Source of the DNA: a virus
Taxonomy: Duplodnaviria > Caudoviricetes
Virus record (IMG/VR): IMGVR_UViG_3300010885_080481
DNA length: 64,000 nt
Direction: 5' to 3' (one strand)
Each line of letters begins with the position of its first letter. Positions within the stretch are counted from its first letter, which is position 1. Position numbers and translations under genes: made by a program. Below the pieces are notes generated by a model. That model saw only the letters and a list, made by a program, of their open reading frames with translations, was not told the origin of the DNA and made no database searches. Of this stretch, positions 15,910 through 59,139 are shown piece by piece.

Positions 15910-15910
15910 T

Positions 15911-17996: not shown

Positions 17997-18079
17997 CGTA
18001 GGATTTTGGATCTCTATAGCCATTGCAGTTGTTGTGATGGCTTTTAAATTTTTATCTGTTGATTCTGACGGAGAAGGAA

Positions 18080-19594: not shown

Positions 19595-20020
19595 ATGTCG
19601 CCTGAAAAAGAAAAAATTCTTTGTGAAAAGTATCCAAAGATTTTTAAATCTAGTCAACACAATGATGAACCTATCGAGATGTGGGGGTTCGAATGTAATG
19701 ATGGTTGGTTTGAATTGATTGATACTTTGTGTAACAAAATCCAATCTCATGTAGATTGGAGATCTAAAAATCTTCAAGACGCAAGTGAGCTTGAGGATTT
19801 GCAGGTCAAGGCTGAACAAGTGAAAGAGAAATTTGGAGGTCTTCGTTTCTATGTATCACGTGGAGATGATATCATTGATGCATTCATTTCTTTCGCAGAG
19901 ACAATGTCTATGAAGATCTGCGAAACCTGCGGCCAACCAGGACAACAAAAAAATGTAAGTGGCTGGATACATACTGCCTGTGATCCATGCTTTGAGAAAA
20001 GAGCGTGGAGAACAACATGA
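19595..20020 (+). CDS. Conserved phage protein with C-terminal Zn finger
   Basis: 'WGFECNDGW...QVKEKFGGLRFY...ICETCGQPG...GWIHTAC'. Confidence 0.65.
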   Translation: MSPEKEKILCEKYPKIFKSSQHNDEPIEMWGFECNDGWFELIDTLCNKIQSHVDWRSKNLQDASELEDLQVKAEQVKEKFGGLRFYVSRGDDIIDAFISFAETMSMKICETCGQPGQQKNVSGWIHTACDPCFEKRAWRTT

Positions 20021-24392: not shown

Positions 24393-24449
24393 TAATTTAT
24401 CATAATTTTTTTTGATAAATTTACTTGCTCTTTGTGTATAGTCACATAT

Positions 24450-29662: not shown

Positions 29663-30188
29663 CATGCATACTGTCGTAATCTTCGAAGGATGTGATAAGG
29701 TCGGCAAGACTGAGATGGCTAGAGAGCTTTCAAGACGGTTAGGCATTCCTTATTTTAAAAATAAATCGGAATGGAGGGCATTTAGCTCAGATCCAGACTA
29801 CTTCGTGAAAGCTCTTCGTTATGGAGATCCTTACTTCTACACATTTCTTCGAGACACAAAAACTTCAACAATTCTAGACAGGTCTTATCCTTCCGAATGG
29901 GTATATTCTAGGGTATACGGAAGAAAGACTGATCATGATGCATTGTCACACATTGACTTTTTGGCTGCGTCGTTTGGCGTGAAGATCGTCATTCCGTATA
30001 GAACCTCATATTCAGGAATGAAGGATGATATTCACGACATAGGTGAATATCATCTACAAAAATTGTCTGATATGTATGAAGAATTTGCAAAGTGGACTAA
30101 ATGTGATGTATTACGTTTTTGTATTGATTCTGAAAACCTAGAATGGGAAATGGAGACCATTCGTAAATTCTTGAAAAAGGAGGCATGA
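29655..30188 (+). CDS. Second thymidylate-kinase-family dNMP kinase (candidate hm-dCMP kinase)
   Basis: 'VIFEGCDKVGKT', 'ILDRSYPSEWVY'; overlaps the dnaE stop and leads the modification cluster. Confidence 0.7.
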   Translation: MNNMHTVVIFEGCDKVGKTEMARELSRRLGIPYFKNKSEWRAFSSDPDYFVKALRYGDPYFYTFLRDTKTSTILDRSYPSEWVYSRVYGRKTDHDALSHIDFLAASFGVKIVIPYRTSYSGMKDDIHDIGEYHLQKLSDMYEEFAKWTKCDVLRFCIDSENLEWEMETIRKFLKKEA

Positions 30189-31213
30189 TGCGCATCGGAA
30201 TTAGTTATTGGGGTTTTTGTGAGCCTCTTGGGACATTAGGAGAGGCAAAAACGCCTGACGGTCATCGGTACGGACGTCCAGTATTCATGGATGCAGCCCA
30301 TACTGCAGGACATAGAGTCTACTCGTTGCAATCGCGTCGCGAGGCAGTTCCATATAACAACGTAGAATACGATGAAGGATTCCCGGATATAGATGTTCTA
30401 TTCGTTGAGTGGAGATGGCCTACTTACAAAAATTCTGGAGATAAAAAAGTAGAACCAGATCTAGACAGACAAAATGCACTTCTAAATCACTACCACGGCA
30501 AGATTCCCGTGGTTATATGGGATTGTGATTATAAGGTTACCCCTGAAGATGAAGAAAAGTGGCCGTTGGCTATCATTGCAGATCCTGCGTTTGATCCTAG
30601 AAACCTGACTAGAAAACGAGAACGTCTCATGTTTTGGTCGGATTGGAAATCTATTTTCAATCCTGCTGAAACGTCTTTTGAATACGGATACGTCGGAAAC
30701 AACTATGAGCGTCCCGAAGCTTTCAAAAGATTCTACTCTTCCCCTGCATCAGAACTAAGAAATATCGGCATTCAAACTTCCATTTATGGAAATTGGTTAG
30801 AAAAATCTCCTGAACGTGAGAGTCCTTCTATTTTGATTGCGACGTGTCCGAATGTGGCATTTGGAACTCGATTGAACTTTTTTGAATCGATGAAACGATT
30901 GAATTCATTCATATGTACGACCCATATAACAAAACCAGAATATGCCCGCCGCGGTTTTGTTTCTCCCAGGTATCTAGAAAACGTCGCGGTCGGAACACCT
31001 TCATTGGTACCATCGGAATTTTTGATGTCAAATTTGTTAGGACAAGATTGGATAGTAACAACGTCCAAACATGTCGTTGAACTGGTATCTCACATCAGTA
31101 ATTTATCTTATCAAGATAGAGTTTCTCTGGTAGAAGAGCAAAGAAAAAATTTGCAAAATAAAAATGTATTTTCCGTTAACAACGTAATAAGTTTTCTTGA
31201 AAGTCTTGTATGA
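30185..31213 (+). CDS. GT-B glycosyltransferase, T4 beta-glucosyltransferase-like (candidate DNA glycosyltransferase)
   Basis: Collinear resemblance to recalled T4 BGT: MRIGI/MKIAI, KTP/KTVP, YVGNNYER/YGGSFR, VSPRYLENVAVGTPSLVPSEF/ITLRVWETMASDAVMLIDEEF. Confidence 0.6.
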   Translation: MMRIGISYWGFCEPLGTLGEAKTPDGHRYGRPVFMDAAHTAGHRVYSLQSRREAVPYNNVEYDEGFPDIDVLFVEWRWPTYKNSGDKKVEPDLDRQNALLNHYHGKIPVVIWDCDYKVTPEDEEKWPLAIIADPAFDPRNLTRKRERLMFWSDWKSIFNPAETSFEYGYVGNNYERPEAFKRFYSSPASELRNIGIQTSIYGNWLEKSPERESPSILIATCPNVAFGTRLNFFESMKRLNSFICTTHITKPEYARRGFVSPRYLENVAVGTPSLVPSEFLMSNLLGQDWIVTTSKHVVELVSHISNLSYQDRVSLVEEQRKNLQNKNVFSVNNVISFLESLV

Positions 31214-31221
31214 GGAATAAA

Positions 31222-32211
31222 ATGAAAGTATTGATCACTGGTGTTGCAGGTCTTTTAGGTGCGAATTTTTCTCGTCATCTTTTGTCCAAAGGACATGACG
31301 TCGTTGGCATCGATGATTTGAGTGGAGGATACGCAGATTCCGTACCAGAGGCTGTAAAGTTTTATCAAGTTGATCTTGCTGAAAGGTTGCAAGTCGAAGA
31401 AGTTTTTAAGACCGAAAAACCTGATTTCGTGTTTCACTTCGCTGCCTATGCTGCTGAAGGCCTCAGTCCGTTCATTAGGAATTACAACTACACGAACAAC
31501 GTATTGGCCTCGGCAAACGTCATCAACGCCTGCGTCAATCATGACGTGAAAAAAGTCATCTTCACTTCTTCAATGGCGGTCTACGGTGAGGGTCGTCCTC
31601 CTTTTAGTGAAGACCAGCTTCCGACTCCTGAAGATCCTTACGGAATCGCCAAGTATGCAGTTGAGATGGACCTGAAGTTAGCTCACAGTATGTTCGGTCT
31701 ACGTTACAGTATCGTTCGCCCTCACAATGTGGTCGGCATCTATCAAAATATTTGGGACAGGTATCGAAACGTTATTGGAATTTGGATTCGTAAAGCTCTC
31801 ATTGGTGAGCCTCTTACGATTTTCGGTGATGGGTCGCAAAAAAGGGCTTTTTCTGATATCAAGTTCTATATGGACCCATTCGAAAAATTGATGTCTTCTT
31901 TTGACGGAGAAACATTCAATATTGGAGCAGATAAAGATTTTACGATCAACGAAGCCTGCGATTTGGTTATCGATGTTGCAGCTGAACTTGGTATCAAAGC
32001 GACCAAGGTTCATCTAGAAAAACGTAATGAGGTTCACACCGCCTATTGCGACCACGCAAAAGCTCATAAGCTTTTAGATTTTAAAGATGAAACGAATCTT
32101 CGTGATACAATCAAGCAGATGTTTGTCTGGGCTCAGCAGCAACCAAATAGACAAATTAAAAATATGGATTATGAGATTGAAAAGAACATGTATTCTTTTT
32201 GGAAGAAATGA
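31222..32211 (+). CDS. NAD-dependent NDP-sugar epimerase/dehydratase (extended SDR)
   Basis: 'ITGVAGLLG', 'FTSSMAVYG', 'YGIAK', 'RPHNVVG'. Confidence 0.9.
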   Translation: MKVLITGVAGLLGANFSRHLLSKGHDVVGIDDLSGGYADSVPEAVKFYQVDLAERLQVEEVFKTEKPDFVFHFAAYAAEGLSPFIRNYNYTNNVLASANVINACVNHDVKKVIFTSSMAVYGEGRPPFSEDQLPTPEDPYGIAKYAVEMDLKLAHSMFGLRYSIVRPHNVVGIYQNIWDRYRNVIGIWIRKALIGEPLTIFGDGSQKRAFSDIKFYMDPFEKLMSSFDGETFNIGADKDFTINEACDLVIDVAAELGIKATKVHLEKRNEVHTAYCDHAKAHKLLDFKDETNLRDTIKQMFVWAQQQPNRQIKNMDYEIEKNMYSFWKK

Positions 32212-32996
32212 CTATGACTTTTCCTGAAAAATTAGCTGATAGAGAAAAATACATTTTTGATCAAGTCTTAGCTGGCAATTTTGATGCTGAATGGTTTCCT
32301 CTTGAATTTTCTTCTGGTGGAAGAACCATCAAGTTCAACGTGATGAACGATGCATTGAAAATCGATGGTGTGAGAGTCAATGTATCTGCAGAGCTTCAAC
32401 AAAAATTAGCCGATGTATTTAACGCGTCTTTGTTGACAACACACATTGCTGATTTGATGTTCATCAATGCCACACATCGAGTAGAACCATGTCCCATGTT
32501 GATATCTTCGACAGTCGATTCTATGATTAAACATAGTCGAATGGTCGATGGAAAAATGGGGATGAAGGTGACGGGGCTAGTGGCTTCTCCTGGAAAGCAT
32601 TGGATTTTAGATAAGAAATTAGATGCAAATCCTAGGAAAGCTTGCAATTATGGTTGGCACTTTGTCGGTGCGAACTATAAAGGTATAAAAGGCTATCCAA
32701 CAGGATCTAAACAAAATAAGTTGAATGGAATGAATATCTCAGTAATTCAGCCAAATGCAACTGCTCACGATATGAAACATTCTGACTATTCTCAGATTTG
32801 CCAGCTAGTTTCTCAAGCTTGTTGGATTGATGGTGTTATACACCGTTTATCTGATGTTCTGCAAGATCCAATGAAATGCGATCTTGCTACCGCAAATGGT
32901 CCTTTAAGCTTCGTTAGGCAACCGGGAACGTCTCAACTTATTGGAACTTCAGTTATGTTTCCTGTAAAAATTACTTCGCAAGGAGGAATCACATGA
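32208..32996 (+). CDS. Conserved protein of unknown function
   Basis: 'NYGWH...IQP...H...HSDYSQ...DG...DVLQDP', a pattern I associate with an uncharacterised bacterial family. Confidence 0.55.
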   Translation: MTMTFPEKLADREKYIFDQVLAGNFDAEWFPLEFSSGGRTIKFNVMNDALKIDGVRVNVSAELQQKLADVFNASLLTTHIADLMFINATHRVEPCPMLISSTVDSMIKHSRMVDGKMGMKVTGLVASPGKHWILDKKLDANPRKACNYGWHFVGANYKGIKGYPTGSKQNKLNGMNISVIQPNATAHDMKHSDYSQICQLVSQACWIDGVIHRLSDVLQDPMKCDLATANGPLSFVRQPGTSQLIGTSVMFPVKITSQGGIT

Positions 32997-33181
32997 CGTA
33001 TGAATATGAATGTAAAGCCTGCAATCATCAGTTTGAAGCGCAACAATCAATTAAAGATCCGCCATTGACAAATTGCCCTCGTTGCAAGACTGACTTTTTA
33101 CGAAGGCTTATAAGCAAGTCAACATTCGTTTTGAAGGGTTCTGGTTGGGCTGCTGATAACTACTCTTCAAAATCTTCTTAG
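32993..33181 (+). CDS. FmdB-family zinc-ribbon protein
   Basis: 'MTYEYECKACNHQFE...CPRC...LIS...FVLKGSGW'. Confidence 0.8.
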   Translation: MTYEYECKACNHQFEAQQSIKDPPLTNCPRCKTDFLRRLISKSTFVLKGSGWAADNYSSKSS

Positions 33182-33906
33182 TAAGTAGGCAGTGAGTGTT
33201 GTCTCAATGGACAATCACTTTTGTTGCGAGAAGATCTAGAAGCAGGATGACCAGGTTTTAACAGGTTGTGTAAGTCTTCTCCTTCTTTACTTGCAAAGAC
33301 TGATTTGACTTCGCCTGTTTCACTATTAAAAATGATAGTATAACCGCCTCTAGTCATATCTAGGGGTTTTTTTAACGTGTTCATGTAGTCGAACTTACCC
33401 GCTTTTGACATTTCTTTATCAAACCAAGCTTCAAGCACGAAGTTAGAGACAGAAACCGTCACACCGTTAACATCAATTTCGTAGGAATCTCCCTGGACAG
33501 GGTCACAAAGCTCTAGGGCCACGAAGGTATGATCCCCTCTGTTGGACCACAAGTTAATGTAAGGATTGTAGAAAGTCTCTAATATTTCATGCGATAGGAC
33601 AGTAGAAACAGCATGCGTTCCTTTTAATACCGTTCCACCGTGTTTTAGTAGCGGGTCCGTAAAAACTCTACACCAAACTCTTCCGTCAGGATCTTGCGTA
33701 TGGTATCCAAGAGCACCAGCAACATCTGGAGAGTCAATAAGAACCACGGGGAATCCATCATTACCACCTACCTTTATCTCCCACGGCACCCTTTCCAGGA
33801 GCGGGGCAGCATGTTGATTCATTTGTATCTTGCAGGCTTCAACCATTAAGTTTAAGTCTGCTTCTGAAACGTTAGTCGACTTATTGATGACATTAAACGT
33901 TCTCAT
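33178..33906 (-). CDS. Putative zincin-like metalloprotein (HExxE)
   Basis: 'ALGYH', 'VLSHEILET', 'ELCDPV', 'VSNFV'; ATATTTA upstream at 33912-33918. Confidence 0.5.
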   Translation of the reverse strand: MRTFNVINKSTNVSEADLNLMVEACKIQMNQHAAPLLERVPWEIKVGGNDGFPVVLIDSPDVAGALGYHTQDPDGRVWCRVFTDPLLKHGGTVLKGTHAVSTVLSHEILETFYNPYINLWSNRGDHTFVALELCDPVQGDSYEIDVNGVTVSVSNFVLEAWFDKEMSKAGKFDYMNTLKKPLDMTRGGYTIIFNSETGEVKSVFASKEGEDLHNLLKPGHPASRSSRNKSDCPLRQHSLPTY

Positions 33907-33957
33907 AATTGTAAATATTCGTCACAACAGTTGTATAATTGAAAAGGTATAAATCAT

Positions 33958-34926
33958 ATGAGAATTTTAGTAACTGGGGGAGCAGGCTTCATCGGCAGCA
34001 ATTTAGCTCGTAAATGTGTTGAAGAAGAACATTACGTGGATGTTGTAGACAATTTGTTGAATGGTCACATCTCTTTTGTTCCTCATCAACTGAGAACAAA
34101 TAATCTGTATATTTGTAATTTTGATTCTGCTCACATTTTGAATAAAATTAGAAATAAAGAATACGATGTTGTTGTTCATCTGGCTGCTATTCCTAGAGTG
34201 AGTTATTCTGTTGAACACCCATTAGAGACTAATGAAACCAATGTGTCAGCAACGCTTAGATTGATAGACGCTTGCAAAGGCAATATAAAACGTTTCGTTT
34301 TTGCTTCTTCATCTTCTGTGTACGGAGGAGCTGAAAATTTGCCAACCAAAGAAAAAGAACTGAAAAATCCTAAATCTCCCTATGCATTTCAAAAATCGAT
34401 TATAGAAGACTATTTGAAGATCTACTACGACAATTTTGGATTAGACTCAGCAAGTCTACGTTTCTTTAACGTTTTTGGTCCTAATCAGTTAGGCAACTCT
34501 CCTTATTCCACTGCGGTTTCTGCATGGGTAAATGCGATTTTGAGAGGGAAATCCATGCGTTCCGATGGGGATGGGTCTCAATCAAGAGACATGTGTTACG
34601 TAGACAACGTCGTAGACGTGTGCTTACGCGCAGCAATGTCTGATAAGATTATTGCGGCTGAAACGCTAAACGTAGCATGTGGTGATAGAACGACGAATAA
34701 AGAAATTTTGCAATATTTGTTGAAAAAATTCCCAGATTCCAAATACCATGATGCACCATGGCGTCCAGGAGATGTCATGCACACACAAGCAGACGTCAGT
34801 AGAACAAAAGAAGTATTAGGGTACGTTCCTCTTGTGCATTTTTGGGAAGGATTGGAAAAGACCATTCAGTGGTACCAAGATAATTGGGAATTAATTCTAT
34901 CACTGGATGATCAAGGAAATATATGA
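33958..34926 (+). CDS. NAD-dependent NDP-sugar 4-epimerase, WbpP/GalE-like
   Basis: 'TGGAGFIG', 'HLAA', 'ASSSSVYG', 'SPYAFQK', 'RFFNVFGP', 'GDGSQSRD', 'RPGDVMHTQAD'. Confidence 0.9.
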   Translation: MRILVTGGAGFIGSNLARKCVEEEHYVDVVDNLLNGHISFVPHQLRTNNLYICNFDSAHILNKIRNKEYDVVVHLAAIPRVSYSVEHPLETNETNVSATLRLIDACKGNIKRFVFASSSSVYGGAENLPTKEKELKNPKSPYAFQKSIIEDYLKIYYDNFGLDSASLRFFNVFGPNQLGNSPYSTAVSAWVNAILRGKSMRSDGDGSQSRDMCYVDNVVDVCLRAAMSDKIIAAETLNVACGDRTTNKEILQYLLKKFPDSKYHDAPWRPGDVMHTQADVSRTKEVLGYVPLVHFWEGLEKTIQWYQDNWELILSLDDQGNI

Positions 34927-35906
34927 AGAATTTTTCTAGCTTTACTGAAGCCTATCGAAACTTGCTTCTTGATGTCTATGAACATCCTGAGTTTTCTTCT
35001 GCTCCCCGTGGTTATAAAATTAGAGAAAAATTGGGCGTGAGTTTCAGCATTACGAACCCAAGAGATCGTTTGCCCTTTCTCACCGGTCGTGATTTTAGCA
35101 TCTCTTATCTTATTGCAGAATCGTTGTGGTATTTGTCAGGCGATGATTCCACTGAATGGATTTCTAACTACTCTTCTTTTTGGAAAAGCATTTCTGATGA
35201 TGGAGTAACTGCTAACAGCGCCTATGGAGCTCGTATATTCAAACCTCACCCTAGAGTAGCAGGGGAATTAGACCCCGCTTGGACGCAATGGAGGTACGTC
35301 GTTGATGAGCTGATTGCAGACCAAGACTCCAGAAGAGCAGTCATACATATCAGATCGCCGCAGGATTCTATCCTGGCAAAGAAGGACGTGCCTTGCACGT
35401 TGAGCTTGCAGTTTTTTCTTCGTAACGATTTGGTTCATATGGTCGTTTCTATGCGTTCATCTGATCTAATTCTAGGATTAGCGTACGACGTCCCTGCTTT
35501 TACTTTGTTCCAAGAATTACTAGCTTCTGAATTATCTAACAGGCTAAATAGACCAATAGGGTTGGGGACGTATACACATGTCAGTAATTCTCTTCATATA
35601 TACGAGAGACATTTCAAGATGGTAGAAGAAATCTTGTCTTCACCTATCAACTCTTCAATAGAAATGCCTGCTTTACCTAACAAGGAAGTACCGATCTCTA
35701 ATATGATGAGTTTTGAAAAAGCCTGCAGAAATGCTGGTTCGTACCAAGAGATCGATAGGTTACTATCGAATAACGTTATTGAAGATTATTGGAAGGATTG
35801 GTTGCTTATTCTTGCATCTCATAGATCGTTTAAATTTTCTGCTGAACATCAGAAAAAAATCATGAACCAAGTCAGCTTCGAGGGATATAAGTTTTTTAAC
35901 AAATAA
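34923..35906 (+). CDS. Thymidylate-synthase homolog, Asp-type (putative dCMP hydroxymethylase)
   Basis: 'SRRA', catalytic 'DVPCT', and 'MRSSDLILGLAYD' with Asp at the E. coli TS Asn177 position; 'SLHIYERH'. Confidence 0.8.
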   Translation: MKNFSSFTEAYRNLLLDVYEHPEFSSAPRGYKIREKLGVSFSITNPRDRLPFLTGRDFSISYLIAESLWYLSGDDSTEWISNYSSFWKSISDDGVTANSAYGARIFKPHPRVAGELDPAWTQWRYVVDELIADQDSRRAVIHIRSPQDSILAKKDVPCTLSLQFFLRNDLVHMVVSMRSSDLILGLAYDVPAFTLFQELLASELSNRLNRPIGLGTYTHVSNSLHIYERHFKMVEEILSSPINSSIEMPALPNKEVPISNMMSFEKACRNAGSYQEIDRLLSNNVIEDYWKDWLLILASHRSFKFSAEHQKKIMNQVSFEGYKFFNK

Positions 35907-35914
35907 GGAATTTT

Positions 35915-36481
35915 ATGCTGCTAAATCCTCAATTTATTTTATATTGCGGTCCTATGTTCAGCTCAAAAACGACTGGGCTTCTATCTTCAATTGATCGTTT
36001 TAGATACCAAAACAAAAAGGTCATTGTTTTTAAACCAAAGCTTGACGATAGGTACGTTGAAGATTTTGTTTGCACTCATAGTGGGTGGAAAGTGGCAGCA
36101 ACTTGTATCAAAGAAGGAAGCGACATCTTAGAAAAGTTATCAGAGATGGAAGAAAATCCGCACGTCGTTGCCGTCGACGAAGCTTTTATGATACCTGGAA
36201 TTGCAAAAGTTCTTATTTGGTTATACAGAAGCGGATATTCAGTTGTCGTTTCATCTTTGGATTTATCAGCCACTGGTAAACCTTTTGACGAGATTGAAAA
36301 AATGTTGCCTTGGACTACGCACGTAGAAAAGAGAAGTGCAGTGTGTACAGTCTGTAGCAGAGACGCTTATTACACTTACAAGAAGCAAATGGGCGGAGAT
36401 GAGATTGAAGTTGGTGGGTCTGAACTTTACGAGCCTAGATGCTTAAAATGTCATCCATTGATCTTTGATCCTTCAAGGTGA
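35915..36481 (+). CDS. tdk: Thymidine kinase (TK1 type), divergent
   Basis: 'GPMFSSKTT', 'KPKLDDRY', 'VAVDEA', 'AVCTVC', 'IEVGGSELYEPRCLKC'. Confidence 0.85.
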   Translation: MLLNPQFILYCGPMFSSKTTGLLSSIDRFRYQNKKVIVFKPKLDDRYVEDFVCTHSGWKVAATCIKEGSDILEKLSEMEENPHVVAVDEAFMIPGIAKVLIWLYRSGYSVVVSSLDLSATGKPFDEIEKMLPWTTHVEKRSAVCTVCSRDAYYTYKKQMGGDEIEVGGSELYEPRCLKCHPLIFDPSR

Positions 36482-36485
36482 TTTT

Positions 36486-36953
36486 ATGGATTTTAATAGA
36501 CATTTGCAAAAGCTTGAAGTTTTTATGAAAATGTGTAAAGAACTTTCAACGCTTTCGTATGATGAAAAGTATAAGGTGTCTTCTATTATTATCACTTCTG
36601 ATTATAGAGAAGTTTGTGCAATAGGATACAACGGAAGCTATAAAGGTGGTCCTAATCAAAGAAGTTCTTTAGAACATGGAGGGTCTGGATTTTTACATGC
36701 AGAAGAAAATGCCTTGTTCCACCTCTGCAAACCATACGAACTTAGGAACAATTTGCTAATGTTGTGCACACACAAACCTTGTTCTATGTGTGCGAAAAGA
36801 ATAGTAAATAGTGGAATACAAAAAATAGTTTTTGATATTGATTATGTTGATCAAGAGGCGTCTGCTGACCAAATATTCCAAGTCAGCGGTACGAAATGTA
36901 TAAAGTATCAAGACTTAATTTCTTTTCCTCAAATCTTGTTTGCGTCTAACTAA
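36486..36953 (+). CDS. dCMP deaminase family
   Basis: 'IGYNG', 'HAEENA', 'THKPCSMC'. Confidence 0.85.
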   Translation: MDFNRHLQKLEVFMKMCKELSTLSYDEKYKVSSIIITSDYREVCAIGYNGSYKGGPNQRSSLEHGGSGFLHAEENALFHLCKPYELRNNLLMLCTHKPCSMCAKRIVNSGIQKIVFDIDYVDQEASADQIFQVSGTKCIKYQDLISFPQILFASN

Positions 36954-36987: not shown

Positions 36988-37281
36988 ATGAAGAAATTAT
37001 CAGAAAAAGAAATTATCCGTTTAATGCGAGAAGAATGGATTAAAAAAGTCAATGGATTGTTGTCTGAAAAAGCAGAAAAAAATTCAGACAACTTAAAAAT
37101 GCTGGCAAGAGTGAACGGAAAAGAAAAGTTAGTGATCTCTCCAGATCTAAAAGTCGAAAAGGACAATTTTCTTTATACTGTGGTCAGCGTAAATGAAAAA
37201 GAAGTTACTTTAAGAAAACCTTCTGGCGAAGAATTCACTATCACGTCAAAAGAGTTTGAAGAAGAATTTGAAAGAGAATGA
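36988..37281 (+). CDS. Hypothetical protein with shared N-terminal peptide
   Basis: MKKLSEKEIIRLMREEW...; ATAATTA at 36958; beta-rich C-terminal half. Confidence 0.6.
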   Translation: MKKLSEKEIIRLMREEWIKKVNGLLSEKAEKNSDNLKMLARVNGKEKLVISPDLKVEKDNFLYTVVSVNEKEVTLRKPSGEEFTITSKEFEEEFERE

Positions 37282-37294
37282 TGGAGTTTGCATT

Positions 37295-38035
37295 ATGAAC
37301 AAAAACAATAATGATAAAATTGAATTAGATAACATCTTAAAAAGCGTGGTCAAGAACTCCATCGCCAAGCACGCTCCTGTTTCGCAACTTCAAGAAGTTG
37401 CTGATGATTCAAATTCTTTAAAGGAAGCATACGTAGCTGAACCTAAAGTTTTTAAACAGGTAACAGAGTTTGTTACCCAAAAAACCAAAAGTGCTCATTA
37501 TGATCTTTACAAGGGTTATACTGAATCTTTGACTAAAGTATCTGCCAAGCTAGATTCTGTCAATAGACCAGATGCAAATCCTAGAAGTTCTGAATACGCT
37601 TCATTGAAAAAAGATGAAGTTTATAATCTAAATGCAACATGGTTACATGAATTATATTTTGCTAACTGTTTTGACCCACATTCAGAAATTACTATGGATT
37701 CCATGTCTTATCTCAGGCTTGAGAGAGACTTCGGCACATTCGAAGATTGGCAACGAGATTTTATTGCCTGTGCATCAGCTGCAGGAGTTGGTTGGGCTGT
37801 TTGTGGATATCACATGTTCTTACAACGGTATGTTAACACGTTCGTCGGTCTGCACGATCGGAATGTGATGCTAGGGTTGTATCCAATCATGGTTGTAGAC
37901 ATGTGGGAACATGCTCATAGAGATTATCTTAATGATAAAAAGAGCTACATAGTTTCTCAAATGAGAGAAATTAATTGGAATGTAGTAGAAGAGAGAGTAG
38001 TTAAAGCAGAACAGATAGCGCAGGCGTTGAAATGA
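37295..38035 (+). CDS. Fe/Mn superoxide dismutase with N-terminal extension
   Basis: All four metal ligands seen: 'AHYDLYKGY', 'WLHELYF', 'DMWEH'; also 'GWA'. Confidence 0.8.
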   Translation: MNKNNNDKIELDNILKSVVKNSIAKHAPVSQLQEVADDSNSLKEAYVAEPKVFKQVTEFVTQKTKSAHYDLYKGYTESLTKVSAKLDSVNRPDANPRSSEYASLKKDEVYNLNATWLHELYFANCFDPHSEITMDSMSYLRLERDFGTFEDWQRDFIACASAAGVGWAVCGYHMFLQRYVNTFVGLHDRNVMLGLYPIMVVDMWEHAHRDYLNDKKSYIVSQMREINWNVVEERVVKAEQIAQALK

Positions 38036-41455: not shown

Positions 41456-42217
41456 ATGTTCGTACAATCTGCTCCTGTTGTTGCAGCTGTTCAGTTCGAT
41501 CCAAAGATTCTTGAAGTTCATGAAAATTTGGCGACAGCTCGTTCTCTTGCTTTTGAAGCTGCAGCAAAAGGAGCAGCTGTCGTTGTTTTACCTGAACTGT
41601 GTATAAGCGGATATACTTTAAGGGACTATAAAGAAGCCGCTGAATGTTCTCAAACAAAGAGCGGGTATCAGACGGAAGCTTTTCTTACAATCGCAAAAAA
41701 TTGTAATTGTCATATTATTTTTGGGTATGTTGAATTGTTAGAAGGAAAGCTTTATAATTCTGCTGCTGTTGTAGGCCCTTCTGGATTAGTAGCTAATTAC
41801 CAAAAACACAATTTGTGGGCTAATGATTACTTGTGGGCTGAACCTTCAGAGTCTGTAAATCCTGTTGTCACAACTCGCGCAGGTCGATTAGGAGCTTTGA
41901 TTTGTAGAGATTCTCTTAACAATTATAGAGAATCATATAAATTCTACAAGCCGGATTTCCGATTTTATAGGCAAGGTTCAGTAGATACGATAGCATTATT
42001 AACGAACTGGTCAGGTCAAATTACCCACCCAGATAATTCTTGGGTAGAGCTTGCAGAACAGACTAACTCTAACGTTATTGTTTCTAGCAGAGTTGGTAAA
42101 GAGAGAAATTTGAAGTTTAATGGAGGATCTACGATAATAGATAAAAAGTTGAATGTTTGGACTAACGGATCTTCTTTCACCGAAGCCGCTGTCGTTGGAG
42201 GAACGGTTATTCTATGA
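41456..42217 (+). CDS. Carbon-nitrogen hydrolase (nitrilase superfamily)
   Basis: Catalytic triad context 'VLPEL', 'YQKHNL', 'LICRD'. Confidence 0.85.
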   Translation: MFVQSAPVVAAVQFDPKILEVHENLATARSLAFEAAAKGAAVVVLPELCISGYTLRDYKEAAECSQTKSGYQTEAFLTIAKNCNCHIIFGYVELLEGKLYNSAAVVGPSGLVANYQKHNLWANDYLWAEPSESVNPVVTTRAGRLGALICRDSLNNYRESYKFYKPDFRFYRQGSVDTIALLTNWSGQITHPDNSWVELAEQTNSNVIVSSRVGKERNLKFNGGSTIIDKKLNVWTNGSSFTEAAVVGGTVIL

Positions 42218-47152: not shown

Positions 47153-48391
47153 ATGAACGATAATCGATTTCAAGGAATAGTTCGTAACTACACTGAGCAA
47201 GACGTAAGAAAGCTTCAGAACACGTTAAAGGTAGAACATACCTTGGCTAATCATGGAGCGCAGAAGCTTTGGAAGCTTATTAATTCCGAGCCATACGTTG
47301 CAGCCTTAGGAGCTCTCACGGGCAATCAGGCGGTGCAACAGGTCAAGGCAGGTCTCAAGGCTATCTATTTATCAGGATGGCAGGTAGCCGCCGACGCCAA
47401 CCTTGCCGGTGAGATGTATCCTGATCAGAGTCTCTATCCCGTCAACAGCGTTCCGTCTGTCGTTAAGCGTATCAACAATGCGCTTCTACGTTCAGATCAG
47501 ATCGATAACTCTGAAGGTAAGACCGGTACCGACTGGTTTGCACCAATTGTTGCCGATGCCGAGGCTGGTTTTGGTGGACCACTCAATGCATTTGAACTTA
47601 CCAAGGCTCTAATTGAAGCCGGAGCCTCAGGCGTCCATTTTGAGGATCAACTAGCCTCTGAAAAGAAATGTGGCCACATGGGAGGCAAGGTGCTCGTCCC
47701 AACTTCACAGTTCATCCGTACGTTGACTGCAGCACGTCTGGCCGCGGATGTTATGGATGTTCCAACCGTCATTATCGCCAGGACGGACGCAGATTCAGCT
47801 AGCCTCATTACCAGCGACATCGATCCATACGACAGAGACTACATCCTCGATGGCGACAGGACCCCTGAAGGATTCCATAGGCTGTGCCGAACAGGGCTTG
47901 AACGTTCGGTGGCTCGCGGTCTAGCATATGCTCCCTATGCAGACATGCTCTGGATGGAGACTTCAACCCCCGACCTGGAGCAGGCCAAGCTCTTCGCCGA
48001 GGCCATTCACAAGAAGTTTCCAGGAAAACCCCTAGCCTACAATTGCTCACCCTCATTCAACTGGAAGAAGAACCTCGATGACTCAACCATCGCTAAGTTC
48101 CAACGAGAGCTCGCCGCCATGGGCTATAAGTTCCAGTTCGTCACCCTTGCCGGCTTCCACTCGCTCAACCACTCCATGTACCAGTTGGCCCATGGTTATA
48201 AGGATCGAGGCATGGCAGCCTACTCTGAACTACAACAGGCTGAGTTTGCAGCTGAGAAGATCGGTTACACGGCCACGAAACACCAGCGAGAGGTCGGCAC
48301 CGGTTACTTTGATGCAGTCTCTCAGGTTATTTCTGCCGGTAATTCATCCACGTTGGCGCTTCATGGATCGACTGAAGAAGAGCAATTTTAA
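47153..48391 (+). CDS. aceA: Isocitrate lyase
   Basis: '[11 protein letters not shown]', 'YPDQSLYP', 'DAEAGFGG', 'HFEDQ', signature 'KKCGHMGGK', 'ARTDA', 'YNCSPSFNW', '[11 protein letters not shown]'. Confidence 0.97.
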
Positions 48392-49182: not shown

Positions 49183-49764
49183 ATGGGTATTGGCAAGATC
49201 GACCTGTCTGAAGCTAGTTCTATCGCAAGTTCTGTCTTGAAATACATTCAACCTGCCTTGACCAAAGGCGAAGTTGCTGGATCAATCCGCCGCCATAAAG
49301 AAATTGTCGGCGATGTTGAGATCGTTGCGATGAGCGATAACAGAGAGCTTCTTGTCAAACTCCTGGCCGACGTTGGTCAGCACATCAAGCCTGGTGTGCC
49401 GGGCCTAGTTCCTTGGGCGCCGAAGGTCGATGCCAAGTATTTTCGAGTTCGTTTGAATGAAGGCATGAATCTCGATCTCTTCATGGCATCTCCTGAGAAT
49501 TGGGGAGGGCTTTTGTTGATGCGAACTGGTTCTGGCGCCGGACTAGATGGTAATTCTTTCAACGGTTTCACACCAGGTATTTTTTCTCGTTGGAAGAAGC
49601 TTTCAGGTGGCGGCCGCATGACGAACTGCATGCCAACGATGCCCACTGGCGAACAACTGTGGATTCCGGAAGAGCAGGACTTTTTTGATCTTCTCGAGAT
49701 GGATTTCGTTCCTCCTGTCGAACGAGTTTCGAAGGCTGCGATCAAGAAATATATTCGCAAATGA
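49183..49764 (+). CDS. DNA polymerase X-like nucleotidyltransferase (palm/thumb only)
   Basis: 'AGSIRRHKEIVGDVEIV', 'LDLF', 'RTGS', 'EEQDFFDLLEMDFVPPVER'. Confidence 0.75.
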   Translation: MGIGKIDLSEASSIASSVLKYIQPALTKGEVAGSIRRHKEIVGDVEIVAMSDNRELLVKLLADVGQHIKPGVPGLVPWAPKVDAKYFRVRLNEGMNLDLFMASPENWGGLLLMRTGSGAGLDGNSFNGFTPGIFSRWKKLSGGGRMTNCMPTMPTGEQLWIPEEQDFFDLLEMDFVPPVERVSKAAIKKYIRK

Positions 49765-49790
49765 ATTTGAGAGCAATATTTAGTCATGCT

Positions 49791-50537
49791 ATGAAATTGG
49801 CTGTCTTCGATCTTGATGGTACTTTGGCAGAAAGCAAATCTCGTGTAAAGCCAAACATGGTTGATAGCTTGAAGAAGCTTCTTGCCAAGCATGATGTTGC
49901 AGTGATTTCCGGGGGTGCGTGGCCGCAATTCGAATCTCAGCTCGTGAATCAACTCGGACTTTCGTCAGACGAATCCCGGCGCTTACACCTATTTCCGACG
50001 TCAGGCACCAGCTTCTATAATAACCATGATGGTAAAAAGTGGAACAGGGTCTATTACGAAGGCCTCACTGACGAAGAAGTCAAGAAGATTATGTTGGCAT
50101 TTCGTGTCGTTCTTGATAACCCAGGCGTAAAGATGCCAACAAGATTTTGGGGGGATCAGCTAGAAAATCGAGGAACTCAGATCACATTTTCTGCCATGGG
50201 CCAGCTTGCGCCCGTCGAGGAGAAGAAAAAGTGGGATCCTTCTTTCTTCAAACGTTTAATCCTTATAGAAAAGCTGATGCAGCATCTACCTGAATTTGCG
50301 CTTAAAGCAGGCGGTTCTACATCCATTGACGTTACGCGCAAAGGCATTGACAAAGCATACGGTATCGCACAGATGGAAAAGCATCTAGGGATCCCAAGGA
50401 AAGAGATGCTATTTATTGGAGATGCAATTTTCCCAGGAGGAAACGATTATGCCGTTCAAGAGGCAGGCGTCAAATGCATCGAGACATCTGGACCTGAATT
50501 CACTATTCAAATCATTGAAGAAATTTTGAAGAGTTAA
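49791..50537 (+). CDS. HAD-IIB hydrolase, phosphomannomutase-like
   Basis: 'FDLDGTL', 'VISGG', 'ENRG', 'GGSTSIDV', 'DKAYG', 'GDAIFPGGND'. Confidence 0.8.
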   Translation: MKLAVFDLDGTLAESKSRVKPNMVDSLKKLLAKHDVAVISGGAWPQFESQLVNQLGLSSDESRRLHLFPTSGTSFYNNHDGKKWNRVYYEGLTDEEVKKIMLAFRVVLDNPGVKMPTRFWGDQLENRGTQITFSAMGQLAPVEEKKKWDPSFFKRLILIEKLMQHLPEFALKAGGSTSIDVTRKGIDKAYGIAQMEKHLGIPRKEMLFIGDAIFPGGNDYAVQEAGVKCIETSGPEFTIQIIEEILKS

Positions 50538-51029: not shown

Positions 51030-51854
51030 ATGACCATCCTCTGCATCGACTTCATGAACGCAGCCCATCGTGCTCGCAGCGGATTCACCTCCGGCAAGCA
51101 CGCTGTCGTTTATAACTTCTTCAGGCAATTCAAGGCTCTCGTCGACCAATTCAAGCCCAGCCGCGTCTACCTGGCCCTTGAAGGTCGTCCCGTCCATCGC
51201 CACGAGGCCATGGTGGAATACAAGGCAAATCGCGTCATCGCAGAGGATGATCCGCGGAGAGAGGAACTCTTCCGGTTCTTCAAACAGAAGGACACCATCC
51301 TCAAACTCCTCTCGGAAAACTTCCCGGTGTCCTGTGTTCGTCATCCCACCTCCGAGGCCGACGACACCATCTACAACTTGATCAAGACCTCCTCCACGGC
51401 CGTTCCCTGGACCGTCGTCTCCACCGACACCGACTTCATTCAGGCCCTACAAGAATTCCCGCATATTTCGTTGTATAATCCGGTCAAAAAGATTTTCGTG
51501 AATTCTCCTGACCATCCCTACATCACCTGGAAGGCGCTTCGCGGAGACTCATCAGACAACATTCCTGGCATCCCAGGGGTTGGTGACAAGACGGCTGAGA
51601 AGTTGGCCTGTGATCCGGAAGCCCTGGCAGAGTTCCTTTCCGATCCGTCGAAAGCCGAGGTGTTCCAACGCAACTACGATCTTATTTCTTTCAGGACGTG
51701 GTCAGAGGTAGAGGCGACAGAAATGACGTCAAGTTCTCCGTCCAAAGACTGGAATTCTGTCAAAGAAATTTTCGATAATATGGGGTTTCAATCCATCACC
51801 AAGGAAGGTTCTTGGCAAAAGTTTCTAATGCCTTTCGAAACGCTGTGGGGCTGA
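51030..51854 (+). CDS. Second 5'-3' exonuclease / flap endonuclease
   Basis: 'IDFMN', 'EADDTI', 'STDTDF', 'LRGDSSDNIPGIPGVGDKTA'. Confidence 0.9.
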   Translation: MTILCIDFMNAAHRARSGFTSGKHAVVYNFFRQFKALVDQFKPSRVYLALEGRPVHRHEAMVEYKANRVIAEDDPRREELFRFFKQKDTILKLLSENFPVSCVRHPTSEADDTIYNLIKTSSTAVPWTVVSTDTDFIQALQEFPHISLYNPVKKIFVNSPDHPYITWKALRGDSSDNIPGIPGVGDKTAEKLACDPEALAEFLSDPSKAEVFQRNYDLISFRTWSEVEATEMTSSSPSKDWNSVKEIFDNMGFQSITKEGSWQKFLMPFETLWG

Positions 51855-53138: not shown

Positions 53139-53876
53139 ATGAAAACTTTCAGGAACCTATTACAATTTAGCTTGCTATCATTCGTGGTAGGGTGTTGTAC
53201 AGGAGGATCTATACCCTTAAAGCCAGAGCCAACGAAACAGGAACTACCTAATCATACGTTGGCAAATGATAGACAAAAAACCGTTGAATATCTACTACAT
53301 TCCACAGCGGCTTTAGTCGAAAATGTGGGTTCGTTTGTCGTAACAAACTGCGCAGGGGTCTGGATATCAAAAACGTTAATTTTGACAGCAAATCATTGTG
53401 TGGATGAACACCCGCCGAATTTTCAGTACATAGTCCCAGGAGATTTGGCTGATAAAAAATCGAGAGAAGCTCTCTTATTAGCCGCTGACAAAAAAGTTGA
53501 TCTTGCTCTTTTGATGGCAAATCCTGAAGATTTGCCTGAACATAATGTGGTCAAGCTAAGCGAAGATCCTATCGTGACAGGAGATCCGATGCATGTTGTC
53601 GGTCACACGGCTGGATATCCTTGGACTTATTCATATGGATTCGTCTCTGCCATCAGAGATGGCATGTTTGGTCCATCAGCTTTTGATACAAAAGTGGTTC
53701 AAATCTCCGCACCAGTGTGGATGGGAAATAGCGGCGGCGGGGCCTTTGACGCCAATGGTCAATTGGTCGGAATCTGTTCATGGATTTCCAAAAATGGTCC
53801 ACACTTAACGTTCTTTATACATAGAGATATTATCAAGTCGTTTTTACGCCAAGAATCTTTTAAAAAGACGCCTTGA
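53139..53876 (+). CDS. Trypsin-like serine protease, probable lipoprotein
   Basis: 'LTANHC', 'DLALL', 'GNSGGG'; N-terminal 'LLSFVVGC'; AGGAGG RBS. Confidence 0.85.
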   Translation: MKTFRNLLQFSLLSFVVGCCTGGSIPLKPEPTKQELPNHTLANDRQKTVEYLLHSTAALVENVGSFVVTNCAGVWISKTLILTANHCVDEHPPNFQYIVPGDLADKKSREALLLAADKKVDLALLMANPEDLPEHNVVKLSEDPIVTGDPMHVVGHTAGYPWTYSYGFVSAIRDGMFGPSAFDTKVVQISAPVWMGNSGGGAFDANGQLVGICSWISKNGPHLTFFIHRDIIKSFLRQESFKKTP

Positions 53877-54159
53877 TGTTTGGAAGCTTTTGATGCAGAC
53901 TAAAACTATAAAATTGCTCTACAGTGTCGTCAAATAGGTCGACAATACCATTTTCATTGATTTTCATCACGGTTCCTTCGTGCACTTTCGTCTTTCCGCC
54001 CAAGGTTCTCTCAAAGAACACTCTGCCTTGTGGCGGAACGACGAATTTGCCATCAACGATAGCATCAGGAAGCGTGCTTAAATCGACCTTTACTTTTTTC
54101 TTCCTAGGTGCCCTTTTCTCCGTCTTCTCTGATTGCTCCATCATTTTTCTTTTTATCAT
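53860..54159 (-). CDS. Hypothetical beta-barrel-like protein
   Basis: ORF coupled downstream of the MBD4-like gene. Confidence 0.5.
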   Translation of the reverse strand: MIKRKMMEQSEKTEKRAPRKKKVKVDLSTLPDAIVDGKFVVPPQGRVFFERTLGGKTKVHEGTVMKINENGIVDLFDDTVEQFYSFSLHQKLPNIKASF

Positions 54160-54565
54160 GTTTTGTTCTCCAATGCCAATATTTCGTCAAAGCGTGATCT
54201 TTTGGTGCCACGTCACCCATATCATTCTTGCAGAATATCTCCCAGGCCCTTGATCCATACTCTCCTATACCTGGAAGACTTCGCACGTCTTGCCATTCTT
54301 CAAGGTAACTAGAAGCTAGTTTCTTTAACAAACTAGATCTTCTGTTTTTAAATCCTAAAGGATAGATCACTGACTGCAGATCCACCTCCGATGCCGCTAC
54401 AATCGTAACGGCATTTGGCCAACGTGAGAAAAATTCTGGTAAAACTTTTTCTACTTGCTTTCTCGATGTGCAATTTAACATCACGCAAGAAACCAATATC
54501 TTCCACTTATCTGGCCACAGGTCTTCTTGTATTAAGCCAAAAGGGCTCCGCGGTGGCGGCGACAT
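54104..54565 (-). CDS. MBD4-like HhH mismatch DNA glycosylase
   Basis: 'PPRSPFGLIQEDLW..KWKILVSCVMLN', 'PLG', HhH 'LPGIGEYG', 'IFC', 'PKDHALTKY' closely follow the recalled human MBD4 catalytic domain, including the catalytic Asp. Confidence 0.9.
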   Translation of the reverse strand: MSPPPRSPFGLIQEDLWPDKWKILVSCVMLNCTSRKQVEKVLPEFFSRWPNAVTIVAASEVDLQSVIYPLGFKNRRSSLLKKLASSYLEEWQDVRSLPGIGEYGSRAWEIFCKNDMGDVAPKDHALTKYWHWRTKHDKKKNDGAIREDGEKGT

Positions 54566-56904: not shown

Positions 56905-59139
56905 TCAAGCTGGGTTGTGGACCACGACGAAGAGTGCGTCTTCGGCTGTGATTGCCATTTCTAGCTCGATTGTTGTTGCAGAAGCGATCGAGTAGTCGAG
57001 GTCGAGGGCGAGGCGTACACCGTTGAGGTATACGTCGAGGGCCTTCTTCTCTTCTGCTGCATTTCCTACCACTGCTGCGCGGAGTGAGCCAATGGCTGCG
57101 AAGTTGATTGCAGTTCCAGCAGCGACTGCTCCGTGGGCAACGAGGTCCTGAGCGTATGATCCGCCACCTGCGAGGGAGAGGATTGCACCGACGAGCGTTG
57201 TTGAAGCGCCGAACTGTGCGTCCCAGAGAAGGCGCGAGCCGTCAGCTGCGAGGCTGTATTCCTCACCGTATGCTTCGAGCTTGAGTGCGCTGGAGGCCAT
57301 GAGCTTGATGTCTCCTGCAGCGAATGCAAGAGAACCGCTCATTGCGCCTTCGTTAGCACCGAGCTTGACTTCAGACATCCATGCTGGCACTAGAGCGATG
57401 TCGTTCATTGCTCCGTCGCCGTCTGGTGCACGGTTGCCCTTACCGAAGATAACTTCGCCAGCGCCGCCGTCTTGTCCAATGACGAGGTCCATACCTGCAC
57501 CTGCTCCACCGTGAAGAACGATACCGCTGTCGGTTGTTCCGAGTGAGCCTGTTGCGAGGTAGATGAATGCATCTTCAACACGCATGTTCTGCGTGTCGAT
57601 GTATGTCATCGAGCCCTTAACGCGGAGGTCGCCGTCTACCTGGACGTTTCCTGTGAAGAGTGCGTTTGTTGCTTCGATGTTGCCCTGGACGTTGAGTTCA
57701 GAACCGTCGAAGGTGAGCTTGGCTTCATCCTTGATTGATCCGTCTGCATCGACGATGTAGAGACGTTGTGCAACGTCGCCAGCAATTCCGATCCAGCTTA
57801 ATGATCCGCTGACTGCTGAGATGTTGCCGCTGAAGGAGCCATCGACTGCAGCAAGGTCACCAGAGAGTGTTGCGTCAACTGCTGCAAGATCCCCAGAAAG
57901 CGTTGCATTGACTGCAGCAAGGTCACCAGAGAGTGTTGCATCGACTGCAGCAAGGTCTCCTGATAGAGTTGCATTGACTGCTGCAAGGTCTCCAGATAGA
58001 GTTGCGTCAACTGCTGCAACGTTCCCGCTGAAGGTGCCATCTACGGCTGCGAGATCTCCAGAGAGTGTTGCATCAACTGCTGCAACGTTCCCACTGAAGG
58101 TGCCGTCTACTGCAGAGAGGTCACCTGAGAGTGTTGCGTCAACTGCGGCGATGTTCTGCTCAACCGTGAGTGAGCCGCTGACACCGAGGTCTGCTGCCAT
58201 GTAGACATCAGCCTTGAAGTCTGCAACGCCATCAACGTTGAGTGTGCTGTCGAAGTCAACTGCACCTGTGATACCCATAGAGCCTGTGACTTCGAGACGA
58301 TCGCCTGAAACCGTGAGGCCGTCGTTCATAGAAGCATGTCCTGCCACTGTGAGCGAACCGGAAACTCCGAGAGCAGCTGCCATGTAGACGTCTGCTGCGA
58401 AATCAGCGATACCGCCAACGTCCATTGCTCCGCTGAAAGAAGCGTCAACGGCGTCAACGTTTCCTGAGAATGAGCCATCGACTGCAGAGAGGTCTCCTGA
58501 TAGAGTTGCATCAACTGCTGCGATGTTTCCGCTGAACGTACCGTCTACGGCTGCGAGGTCACCTGAGAGTGTTGCATCGACAGCGGCGATGTTCCCGCTG
58601 AAGGTACCGTCTACTGCAGAGAGATCTCCTGAGAGTGTTGCATCAACTGCTGCAACGTTCCCGCTGAAGGTACCGTCTACGGCTGCGAGGTCGCCTGATA
58701 GAGTTGCATCAACTGCTGAGATGTTGCCGCTGAATGTACCGTCTACTGCTGCAAGGTCTCCAGATAGAGTTGCGTCTACTGCTGCAACGTTCCCGCTGAA
58801 GGTACCGTCTACTGCAGAGATATCTCCTTGGAATGCTGCATCTACGCCGCTTACATGTAATGCAGCGTAGATGTCGGCGAGGTCCTGTGACCCGCTGAGT
58901 GCGTCGTACCAGCGATCTCCACCGATGATCTTGTTGATCTGCGAACGGAGTGCGTCGAGGTCACCGACGATTGTCTGCTTGTAAGCGAGGCTAGAGCCTG
59001 CTGCCATTGTATCATTGAATTCTAATGAACCACTGATCTGTGATTGCTGAACGAATGTTCTTGCCATAACTTGTATCATCCTTTGTTGCGGACCCAGCAG
59101 GGTCCTTGGTTGTACGTACTTTATTGTGGAGAAGCTCAT
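56905..59139 (-). CDS. Tail fibre / virion fibre protein with 11-aa repeats
   Basis: Repeats 'AAVDATLSGDL/AAVDGTFSGN'; fibre-type 'VDGDLRVKGSMTYIDTQNMRVEDAFIYL...DSGI'; C-terminal 'DVYLNGVRL...DY'. Confidence 0.65.
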   Translation of the reverse strand: MSFSTIKYVQPRTLLGPQQRMIQVMARTFVQQSQISGSLEFNDTMAAGSSLAYKQTIVGDLDALRSQINKIIGGDRWYDALSGSQDLADIYAALHVSGVDAAFQGDISAVDGTFSGNVAAVDATLSGDLAAVDGTFSGNISAVDATLSGDLAAVDGTFSGNVAAVDATLSGDLSAVDGTFSGNIAAVDATLSGDLAAVDGTFSGNIAAVDATLSGDLSAVDGSFSGNVDAVDASFSGAMDVGGIADFAADVYMAAALGVSGSLTVAGHASMNDGLTVSGDRLEVTGSMGITGAVDFDSTLNVDGVADFKADVYMAADLGVSGSLTVEQNIAAVDATLSGDLSAVDGTFSGNVAAVDATLSGDLAAVDGTFSGNVAAVDATLSGDLAAVNATLSGDLAAVDATLSGDLAAVNATLSGDLAAVDATLSGDLAAVDGSFSGNISAVSGSLSWIGIAGDVAQRLYIVDADGSIKDEAKLTFDGSELNVQGNIEATNALFTGNVQVDGDLRVKGSMTYIDTQNMRVEDAFIYLATGSLGTTDSGIVLHGGAGAGMDLVIGQDGGAGEVIFGKGNRAPDGDGAMNDIALVPAWMSEVKLGANEGAMSGSLAFAAGDIKLMASSALKLEAYGEEYSLAADGSRLLWDAQFGASTTLVGAILSLAGGGSYAQDLVAHGAVAAGTAINFAAIGSLRAAVVGNAAEEKKALDVYLNGVRLALDLDYSIASATTIELEMAITAEDALFVVVHNPA
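57820..58149 (-). repeat. Coding tandem repeat block 2 (10 x 33 nt)
   Basis: In-frame 11-aa units at aa 331-440. Confidence 0.9.
58423..58818 (-). repeat. Coding tandem repeat block 1 (about 12 x 33 nt, 66-nt higher-order period)
   Basis: In-frame alternating units at aa 108-239. Confidence 0.9.

Follow-up and report, generated by a model that had tools for sequence, protein, structure and literature searches.

A stand-alone MBD4-clade glycosylase of an uncultured jumbo phage with a predicted role in the repair of deaminated modified cytosine

The glycosylase gene and its phage

The window, i.e., the whole stretch of 64,000 nucleotides that was analyzed, encodes among others DnaE, RecA, a DnaB-like protein, RNR, and a lysozyme. 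Judged from its sequence, it belongs to an uncultured jumbo phage; syntenic IMG/VR contigs are 213 and 278 kb long, and complete members of its phage clade reach 298-369 kb. At 54104-54565 on the minus strand, starting with ATG, lies a gene for a stand-alone HhH-GPD glycosylase of 153 aa, a protein that was called identically on three public contigs (Pfam HhH-GPD, E 5.6e-9). A sequence search against the PDB returned MBD4 catalytic domains as all of the top 15 matches (E 8.8e-29 to 9e-27), with residues 3-138 covered by the alignment and only one gap of a single residue, and the next matches were MIG (E 0.0036) and MutYX (E 0.0063). The AlphaFold model (pLDDT 90.7) superposes on the MBD4:T-G and MBD4:hmU-G complexes with an rmsd of 1.2-1.3 Å, and its TM scores, normalized by query, are 0.83-0.87 against MBD4:T-G complexes and 0.58 against MIG. 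Both in sequence and in fold the protein is nearer to MBD4 than to MIG, Nth, or MutY, and the two-domain architecture, the length of 200 or more aa and the Fe-S cluster loop that mark the latter enzymes were not found in it. A C-terminal 4Fe-4S motif is absent as well, none of the only three Cys residues (27, 32, and 112) being C-terminal. The 153 aa also contain no methyl-CpG-binding domain (MBD), as the MBD4 match begins at residue 3 and the upstream ORF is on the opposite strand. The preliminary description had noticed a near motif-for-motif match to the MBD4 catalytic domain with the catalytic Asp kept and no MBD, which is confirmed by the best PDB match, the rmsd of 1.2 Å, and the presence of D123. 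We place the window protein within the MBD4 glycosylase-domain clade but do not regard it as MBD4 in the strict sense.

Once MBD4 has flipped the base, Q449, Y540, and the V448 amide recognize it, and D560 cuts it off. R468 fills the gap, L508 serves as wedge, and the orphan G is recognized through the backbone carbonyls of residues 468 and 506; the C-alpha of G471 sits 4 Å from the thymine C5 methyl group, and K562 both stacks against the base and contacts the hydroxyl of hmU (PMC3479182, PMC3458566). The substitution R468W inactivates the human enzyme (PMC7781447), and K536A slows the mouse enzyme 5-10 times (PMC3479182, PMC3458566). In the window protein, Q13, Y103, and D123 are equivalent to human Q449, Y540, and D560, and each of them is invariant among the 120 nearest homologues (120/120); Y103 replaces the Lys of lyases, so that the enzyme is predicted to be monofunctional. 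The human positions R468, G471, L508, and K562 are occupied by C32, R35, F72, and A125, respectively. Among the same 120 homologues, the R468 column holds Cys in 113, Gln in six, and Arg in one protein, the G471 column Arg in all, the L508 column Phe in 119, and the K562 column Ala in 118. Across 150 more distant representatives of the wider clade, R, K, Q, C, L, I, V, and M all occur at the R468 column, with Cys also present in several long eukaryote-type proteins (long homologues were labelled eukaryotic from length only). The substitution of Cys for Arg (LNCTS versus LNRTS) that had been singled out before was therefore aligned correctly, C32 corresponding to R468, but it is the norm of this clade in a variable column and was rejected as a special feature. 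The trio R468/G471/K562 of vertebrate MBD4 is absent from the window protein (C32, R35, and A125), and these columns vary clade-wide. The informative picture is that of an intact catalyst and reader of the uracil edge with a rebuilt C5 side: the distinctive changes of the clade, Gly471 to Arg and Lys562 to Ala, flank the C5 substituent of the base. R35 or F72 might compensate for the lost Arg finger.

The gene is under strong purifying selection. Comparison with two relatives gave a pN of 0.039 and a pS of 0.44-0.51, from which a dN/dS of about 0.05-0.06 was derived by hand with the Jukes-Cantor correction. The identity of the glycosylase to its nearest relatives (91-93%) is like that of DnaB and RNR, the corresponding values being 79-81% for the PolX-like protein and 68% for the ThyA-like synthase described below.

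The MBD4-like glycosylase family is large, with 340 proteins found by a word search and 49 viral loci; no PHROG was found for it, and the same kind of search, which is weak evidence in this respect, revealed no longer or fused homologues. Prokaryote genomes gave one match in 185,579, located on a phage-like contig with the gene order of the window clade, and a cellular origin of the glycosylase was rejected on this ground. The 89-kb contig in question (JBBAUR010000009.1, L282) belongs to the phage clade of the window and is part of a Bdellovibrionota MAG, which may be a hint to the host or a binning error. Two contigs (L255 and L256; G065 and G050) contain an internally deleted remnant of the gene, consisting of the N-terminal 39 residues and the C-terminal helix, and retain an Asp-type synthase. 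Contigs of the window clade that lack the glycosylase are 52-60% complete and also lack the adjoining PolX gene, so that gain or loss is not readable there. In phylogenetic trees, the window protein clusters among short proteins of viruses, and the long eukaryote-type proteins are nested, with weak support, within the short forms; the position of S-TIM54 differed between trees.

A close relative is the glycosylase domain of mammalian MBD4/MED1 (PDB 4EW4, 1NGN, 4EVV, 4EW0, 6VJW, 4E9G; about 38% identity, rmsd 1.2-1.3 Å), with which the window protein shares the short HhH fold without Fe-S cluster, the equivalents of D560, Q449, and Y540, and the Tyr at the lyase position. It differs from MBD4/MED1 in having neither MBD nor linker, in its Cys, Arg, Phe, and Ala at R468, G471, the L508 wedge, and K562, and in its setting, a phage with predicted genome-wide modified cytosine as opposed to CpG methylation. 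Plant and algal MBD4-like proteins (MBD4L) belong to the same clade, lack an MBD, and have a variable R468 column that includes Cys, but unlike the window protein they have long N-terminal extensions.

Predicted cytosine-modification genes and neighbors of the glycosylase gene

The window contains a ThyA homologue (34923-35906, plus strand) that is predicted to be a MilA-like dCMP hydroxymethylase (PDB CMP 5-hydroxymethylase, E 1.7e-44). Its nearest matches are MilA and gp319 of phage G, not RB69 gp48, and it carries Asp at the columns of both N177 and L143 of the E. coli enzyme. Asp at N177 combined with an acidic residue at L143 is the signature of dCMP as substrate and of a product other than methyl, although N177D with L143D/E cannot separate hmC from 5-hydroxycytosine synthases (PMC13326640). 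Based on the sequence matches, hmC appears likelier than 5-hydroxycytosine as the base of the window phage. ThyX (15869-16570, plus strand; PF02511, E 3.9e-35) would supply dTMP and could thereby leave the ThyA-like enzyme free for cytosine modification. Further genes on the plus strand comprise an all-alpha nucleotide pyrophosphohydrolase as dCTPase candidate (18059-18448; PF08761, E 7e-6; phrog_12184, E 6.4e-15), a dNMP-kinase-like candidate for a modified-nucleotide kinase (29655-30188; phrog_761, E 6e-12) overlapping the end of the DnaE gene, two NAD-dependent NDP-sugar epimerases/dehydratases (31210-32211, PF01370, E 4.7e-49; and 33958-34926, PF01370, E 9.1e-51, overlapping the start of the synthase gene), and a dCMP deaminase near the synthase (36465-36953; PF00383, E 2.6e-17). 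A glycosyltransferase-like protein (30185-31213, plus strand) is a weak candidate for a DNA glycosyltransferase, its PF13524 match (E 7e-5) being under the cut-off and searches of the PDB and of cultured phages yielding no match. Given the Asp-type synthase together with ThyX, the dCTPase candidate, the kinase, the glycosyltransferase-like protein, the epimerases, and the dCMP deaminase, the phage very probably modifies the cytosines of its genome. A second thymidylate kinase is encoded at 17097-17690, and an N6/N4 DNA methyltransferase (PF01555, E 8e-34; 96% identical in relatives) at 20005-20787 on the plus strand.

In comparison with the relatives G001 and G002, the modification cluster (29655-36953) has diverged far more rapidly (synthase 68%, glycosyltransferase-like protein 74%, and second epimerase 74% identity) than the genes next to it (DnaE 97%, dNMP kinase 95-96%). 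The fast divergence suggests swapping of, or diversifying selection on, the DNA decoration.

Directly downstream of the glycosylase gene, and overlapping its 3′ end by 56 nt, lies an unannotated ORF of 99 aa (53860-54159, minus strand) for a Tudor/SH3-like barrel with a basic tail. Its homologue follows the glycosylase gene on the same strand in approximately 23 loci of the clade, and the two are inverted together. Matches of the fold search were Tudor/SH3 barrels with Z not above 7, possibly because this arrangement is a common one. Fusions of this module were not present among the fetched proteins, and the predicted complex of the glycosylase with the 99-aa protein scored 0.31 against a mark of 0.32.

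A minimal PolX-like protein (49183-49764, plus strand; weak PF14791/PF14792) had previously been proposed as a possible working partner of the glycosylase. Homologues were found in only eight of 28 records, all of them near kin, and are absent from G021 (100% complete), G022 (99%), G025 (86%), Xp12, and S-TIM54. An obligatory partnership was consequently rejected, and the linkage amounts to synteny local to the clade. A 5′-3′ exonuclease/flap endonuclease (51030-51854, plus strand) lies less than 9 kb from the glycosylase in most loci of the clade. As neither EndoIV nor UDG genes were found in the five most complete carriers, the host probably supplies the enzymes for the downstream repair steps, and both PolX and the flap nuclease are probably optional.

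Several other genes of the window attracted attention. Host-type metabolic genes include an isocitrate lyase (Pfam E 5.7e-100) and a phosphomannomutase-like HAD protein as well as, by eye, superoxide-dismutase-like, nitrilase-like, and IMPDH/GMP-reductase-like genes (47153-48391, 37256-38035, 41456-42217, 24432-25520, and 49761-50537, all on the plus strand). A protein of 744 aa (56905-59139, minus strand), which shares only about 40% identity with the corresponding proteins of the nearest relatives, has long internal repeats with a unit of 10-11 residues and is probably a virion fiber. A similar short N-terminal helix, M-K-x-x-x-x-x-L-R-x-I-I-x-E-E, is shared by several unrelated ORFs on the plus strand (starts at 15646, 18990, 22269, 23922, 36988, 40481, and 50569).

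Co-occurrence with dCMP-type synthases and mutation spectra

A ThyA-like gene was found in 22 of 38 contigs carrying the glycosylase, and the diagnostic column was readable in 19 of these. Asp, indicative of the dCMP type, is present in 18 of the 19, including all three that are at least 90% complete; the remaining one is a 20% fragment with an Asn enzyme only, whose relative G026 has both types. The synthases of the carriers stem from two lineages, one MilA-like and one T4 gp42-like (58% identical to gp42), while the glycosylase is constant. Matches to the MBD4 clade were obtained for 14 of 50,697 cultured-phage records, namely for eight Bradleyvirinae and S-TIM54. In Xp12, all cytosines are 5mC (PMC9206674), and its glycosylase gene is located two ORFs upstream of an Asp-type synthase; five further Xp12-like carrier contigs all have the Asp type, and S-TIM54 combines an Asp synthase with a C5 methyltransferase. 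Four distant DnaE relatives that are 85-100% complete have neither glycosylase nor synthase. The co-occurrence of MBD4-like genes with Asp-type synthases that the preliminary description had named as a check thus held, both for the readable contigs (18/19) and for the cultured carriers among the Bradleyvirinae and S-TIM54. The dependence is one-way: a synthase without glycosylase is common, and the gene is optional, being absent from 967 T4-type hydroxymethylase records and from 17 of 23 complete Bradleyvirinae, all 17 with synthase, and present in the other six.

A possible exception to the co-occurrence is a marine group of 24 carrier fragments with an S-TIM54-related gene (4-51% complete and centered on the same region), which contain no ThyA-like gene; a C5 methyltransferase was not found in the 15 marine fragments tested. 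Marine IMG/VR contigs with an S-TIM54-type MBD4-like gene beside FolE (L369-L418) are abundant and derive from phages with DNA polymerase B. By eye, the same cluster includes QueE-like and tRNA-guanine-transglycosylase-like genes, and a link to 7-deazaguanine DNA is possible.

The Bradleyvirinae proteins Xp12 gp61, AXL1 gp65, and Donnerlittchen gp33 resemble the window protein in being encoded by stand-alone MBD4-clade genes, in their case in 5mC phages and inside a dCMP-methylase operon; AXL1 gp65 has been described only as an ENDO3c protein without canonical site motifs (PMC9206674). They are 33% identical to the window protein, their residues at columns 32, 35, and 125 being Leu, Trp, and Lys, and in contrast to their genes, that of the window is located 18 kb from the synthase and is paired with the Tudor-like ORF.

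The 23 complete Bradleyvirinae, all with Asp synthase, served as natural knockouts, for which polarized changes at fourfold sites were counted; the result applies to the Xp12 branch, whose glycosylases share 33% identity with that of the window. DNA of the glycosylase-less DLP4 is still restriction-resistant (PMC6469090). In the tree, AXL1 and DoCa6 (gene present) are sister to Bosa, DLP4, and DoCa10 (gene absent), with Xp12 and FMYAK (present) outside. C:G>T:A changes numbered 79 in AXL1 versus 289 in Bosa, at similar C:G>G:C counts (255 versus 265), and the per-gene excess pointed toward Bosa in 45 genes and toward AXL1 in six. Corresponding values were 68 versus 226 for AXL1 and DLP4, which share the host strain D1585 (C:G>G:C 229 versus 231), 81 versus 250 for DoCa6 and DoCa10 (201 versus 209), and 28 versus 172 for Xp12 and Elanor (293 versus 301). 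For Donnerlittchen and PaMx28, C:G>T:A was flat (92 versus 80). In two of three contrasts, lineages without the gene have therefore accumulated three to six times more silent-site C:G>T:A changes at equal C:G>G:C, with C>A rising 1.3-2.7-fold as well; these three contrasts are independent, the tips are not, and recombination can blur polarity. On short terminal branches, five with the gene and seven lacking it, the C>T/C>A ratio was 0.83-3.22 and 3.79-7.38, respectively. The C>T excess is present in all four 3′ contexts, as predicted for genome-wide 5mC. Gene-less phages differ widely in C>T among themselves, too (PaMx74 18 versus DoCa5 222). As to substitute repair in gene-less Bradleyvirinae, no UDG-family match was found in 22 records and no Vsr in five. 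GC at fourfold sites is strongly eroded in some gene-less 5mC-type phages (0.54-0.83 in W18 DoCa5, W24 ZQG1, W19, W21, versus 0.92-0.96 in carriers); in PaMx74, QDWS359, PaMx28, and V45iii it is high without the gene.

Proposed repair role and alternative explanations

Since gene-less lineages of 5mC phages show more C-to-T changes, the gene most likely mends decayed modified cytosines. For the window protein, we assign a probability of about 0.7 to the prediction that it repairs T:G or hmU:G pairs arising from deaminated modified cytosine. According to its gene content, the phage would make hydroxymethyl-dCMP, exclude dCTP, and probably glycosylate the base; deamination of the modified cytosine would then leave a G paired with hmU or, in 5mC phages, with T. 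Neither of these lesions is removed by family-1 UNG; MBD4 excises T, U, and hmU when they lie opposite G. By equivalence with the MBD4 structures, the loop 30-35 and the wedge F72 would open the minor groove and flip the base, Q13, Y103, and the amide of I12 would read its uracil-type edge, and D123 would cleave, whereupon an AP endonuclease of the host and a polymerase of either host or phage might refill the site with modified dCTP. The logic of a methylation system with its own T:G repair is shared with MIG, an archaeal T:G glycosylase encoded beside a C5 methyltransferase, and with Vsr, the sequence-specific endonuclease of E. coli. In APSV1, a MIG-like gene adjoins a methyltransferase, but MIG is longer than the window protein and has an Fe-S cluster (E 0.0036, TM 0.58), and Vsr was absent from the carriers and non-carriers tested. 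The repair of deaminated modified cytosine suggested in the preliminary description is thus partly supported: co-occurrence and the C>T signature of the Xp12-like phages speak for it, the absence of the gene from T4-type phages and 17 of 23 Bradleyvirinae does not. The Cys at R468 and the Ala at K562 also count against it when compared with the inactive R468W and the slower K536A.

Alternatively, the enzyme could be a general U:G glycosylase that replaces or backs host UNG, for example if UNG were poor on modified DNA, or as a response to dUTP stress or a deaminase of the host. U:G is likewise a substrate of MBD4, which uses the same readers to excise this U (PMC3479182, PMC3458566), five near-complete carriers have no UDG gene, and the marine carriers, located beside FolE and queuosine-pathway-like genes, show no dCMP-type synthase in their fragments. 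Still, the fully substituted Xp12 has little C that could yield U and nevertheless belongs to the branch with the C>T excess, and carriers are strongly enriched for Asp-type synthases, which makes this explanation unlikely. Somewhat less probable still is a changed specificity, in which the remodelled C5 pocket (R35, A125, C32, and F72) would have shifted the enzyme to a different base or task, for instance to excising only a hypermodified or oxidized pyrimidine (sugar-hmU, 5-hydroxyuracil) or to binding mismatches without efficient cutting. R35 is invariant (120/120) where the Gly C-alpha of MBD4 sits 4 Å from the thymine methyl, the Lys in contact with the hmU hydroxyl is lost through A125, and the synthase signature does not separate hmC from 5-hydroxycytosine (PMC13326640). 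The invariance of Q13, Y103, and D123, however, argues against it, and the same Arg is found alongside MilA-like, T4-like, and S-TIM54 synthases as well as in long eukaryote-type proteins, thus tracking no single sugar.

Co-occurrence with modified genomes would fit every enzyme against which a phage needs protection, including an anti-host enzyme that attacks unmodified or methylated host DNA and tells self from non-self by modification, and defense glycosylases exist (cited in PMC13326640). We regard this explanation as highly improbable because the pocket recognizes a uracil-type edge to the exclusion of cytosine, the orphan-G readers are backbone atoms retained in the fold, and phages that have lost the gene accumulate more C>T in their own genomes. 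Just as improbable is a near-neutral passenger, with co-occurrence and mutation spectrum explained by common ancestry, by the GC content of the host, or by differing polymerases: the patchy distribution (6/23 Bradleyvirinae), the remnant in two contigs retaining the Asp synthase, and the large differences among gene-less phages are outweighed by the dN/dS of about 0.05-0.06, the identity of 91-93% typical of core replication genes, and the difference of 68 versus 226 C>T changes between AXL1 and DLP4 on one host strain.

Beyond the repair of deaminated modified cytosine, one might combine three further ideas, namely that the remodelled C5 pocket excises sugar-bearing hmU:G, as the first repair of a hypermodified base, that the Tudor-like neighbor is a targeting module replacing the MBD, and that eukaryotes obtained their MBD4 domain from the diverse pool of stand-alone phage genes; that all of this holds jointly is rather doubtful. 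We found no paper linking MBD4 with phages or proposing the repair reading, although an earlier computational mention is possible.

A phage that replaces all of its C by 5mC or hmC should pay a high price in C-to-T mutation, as the deamination products escape UNG, and we found no named phage-side answer to how such genomes remain rich in GC. As Xp12 and AXL1 (gene present) and DLP4 and Bosa (gene absent) are cultured, this question can be put to a direct test. Methylome and damage-repair workflows could also draw on the family for small stand-alone glycosylases, predicted to act on T:G and hmU:G, and the family bears on the origin of eukaryotic MBD4.
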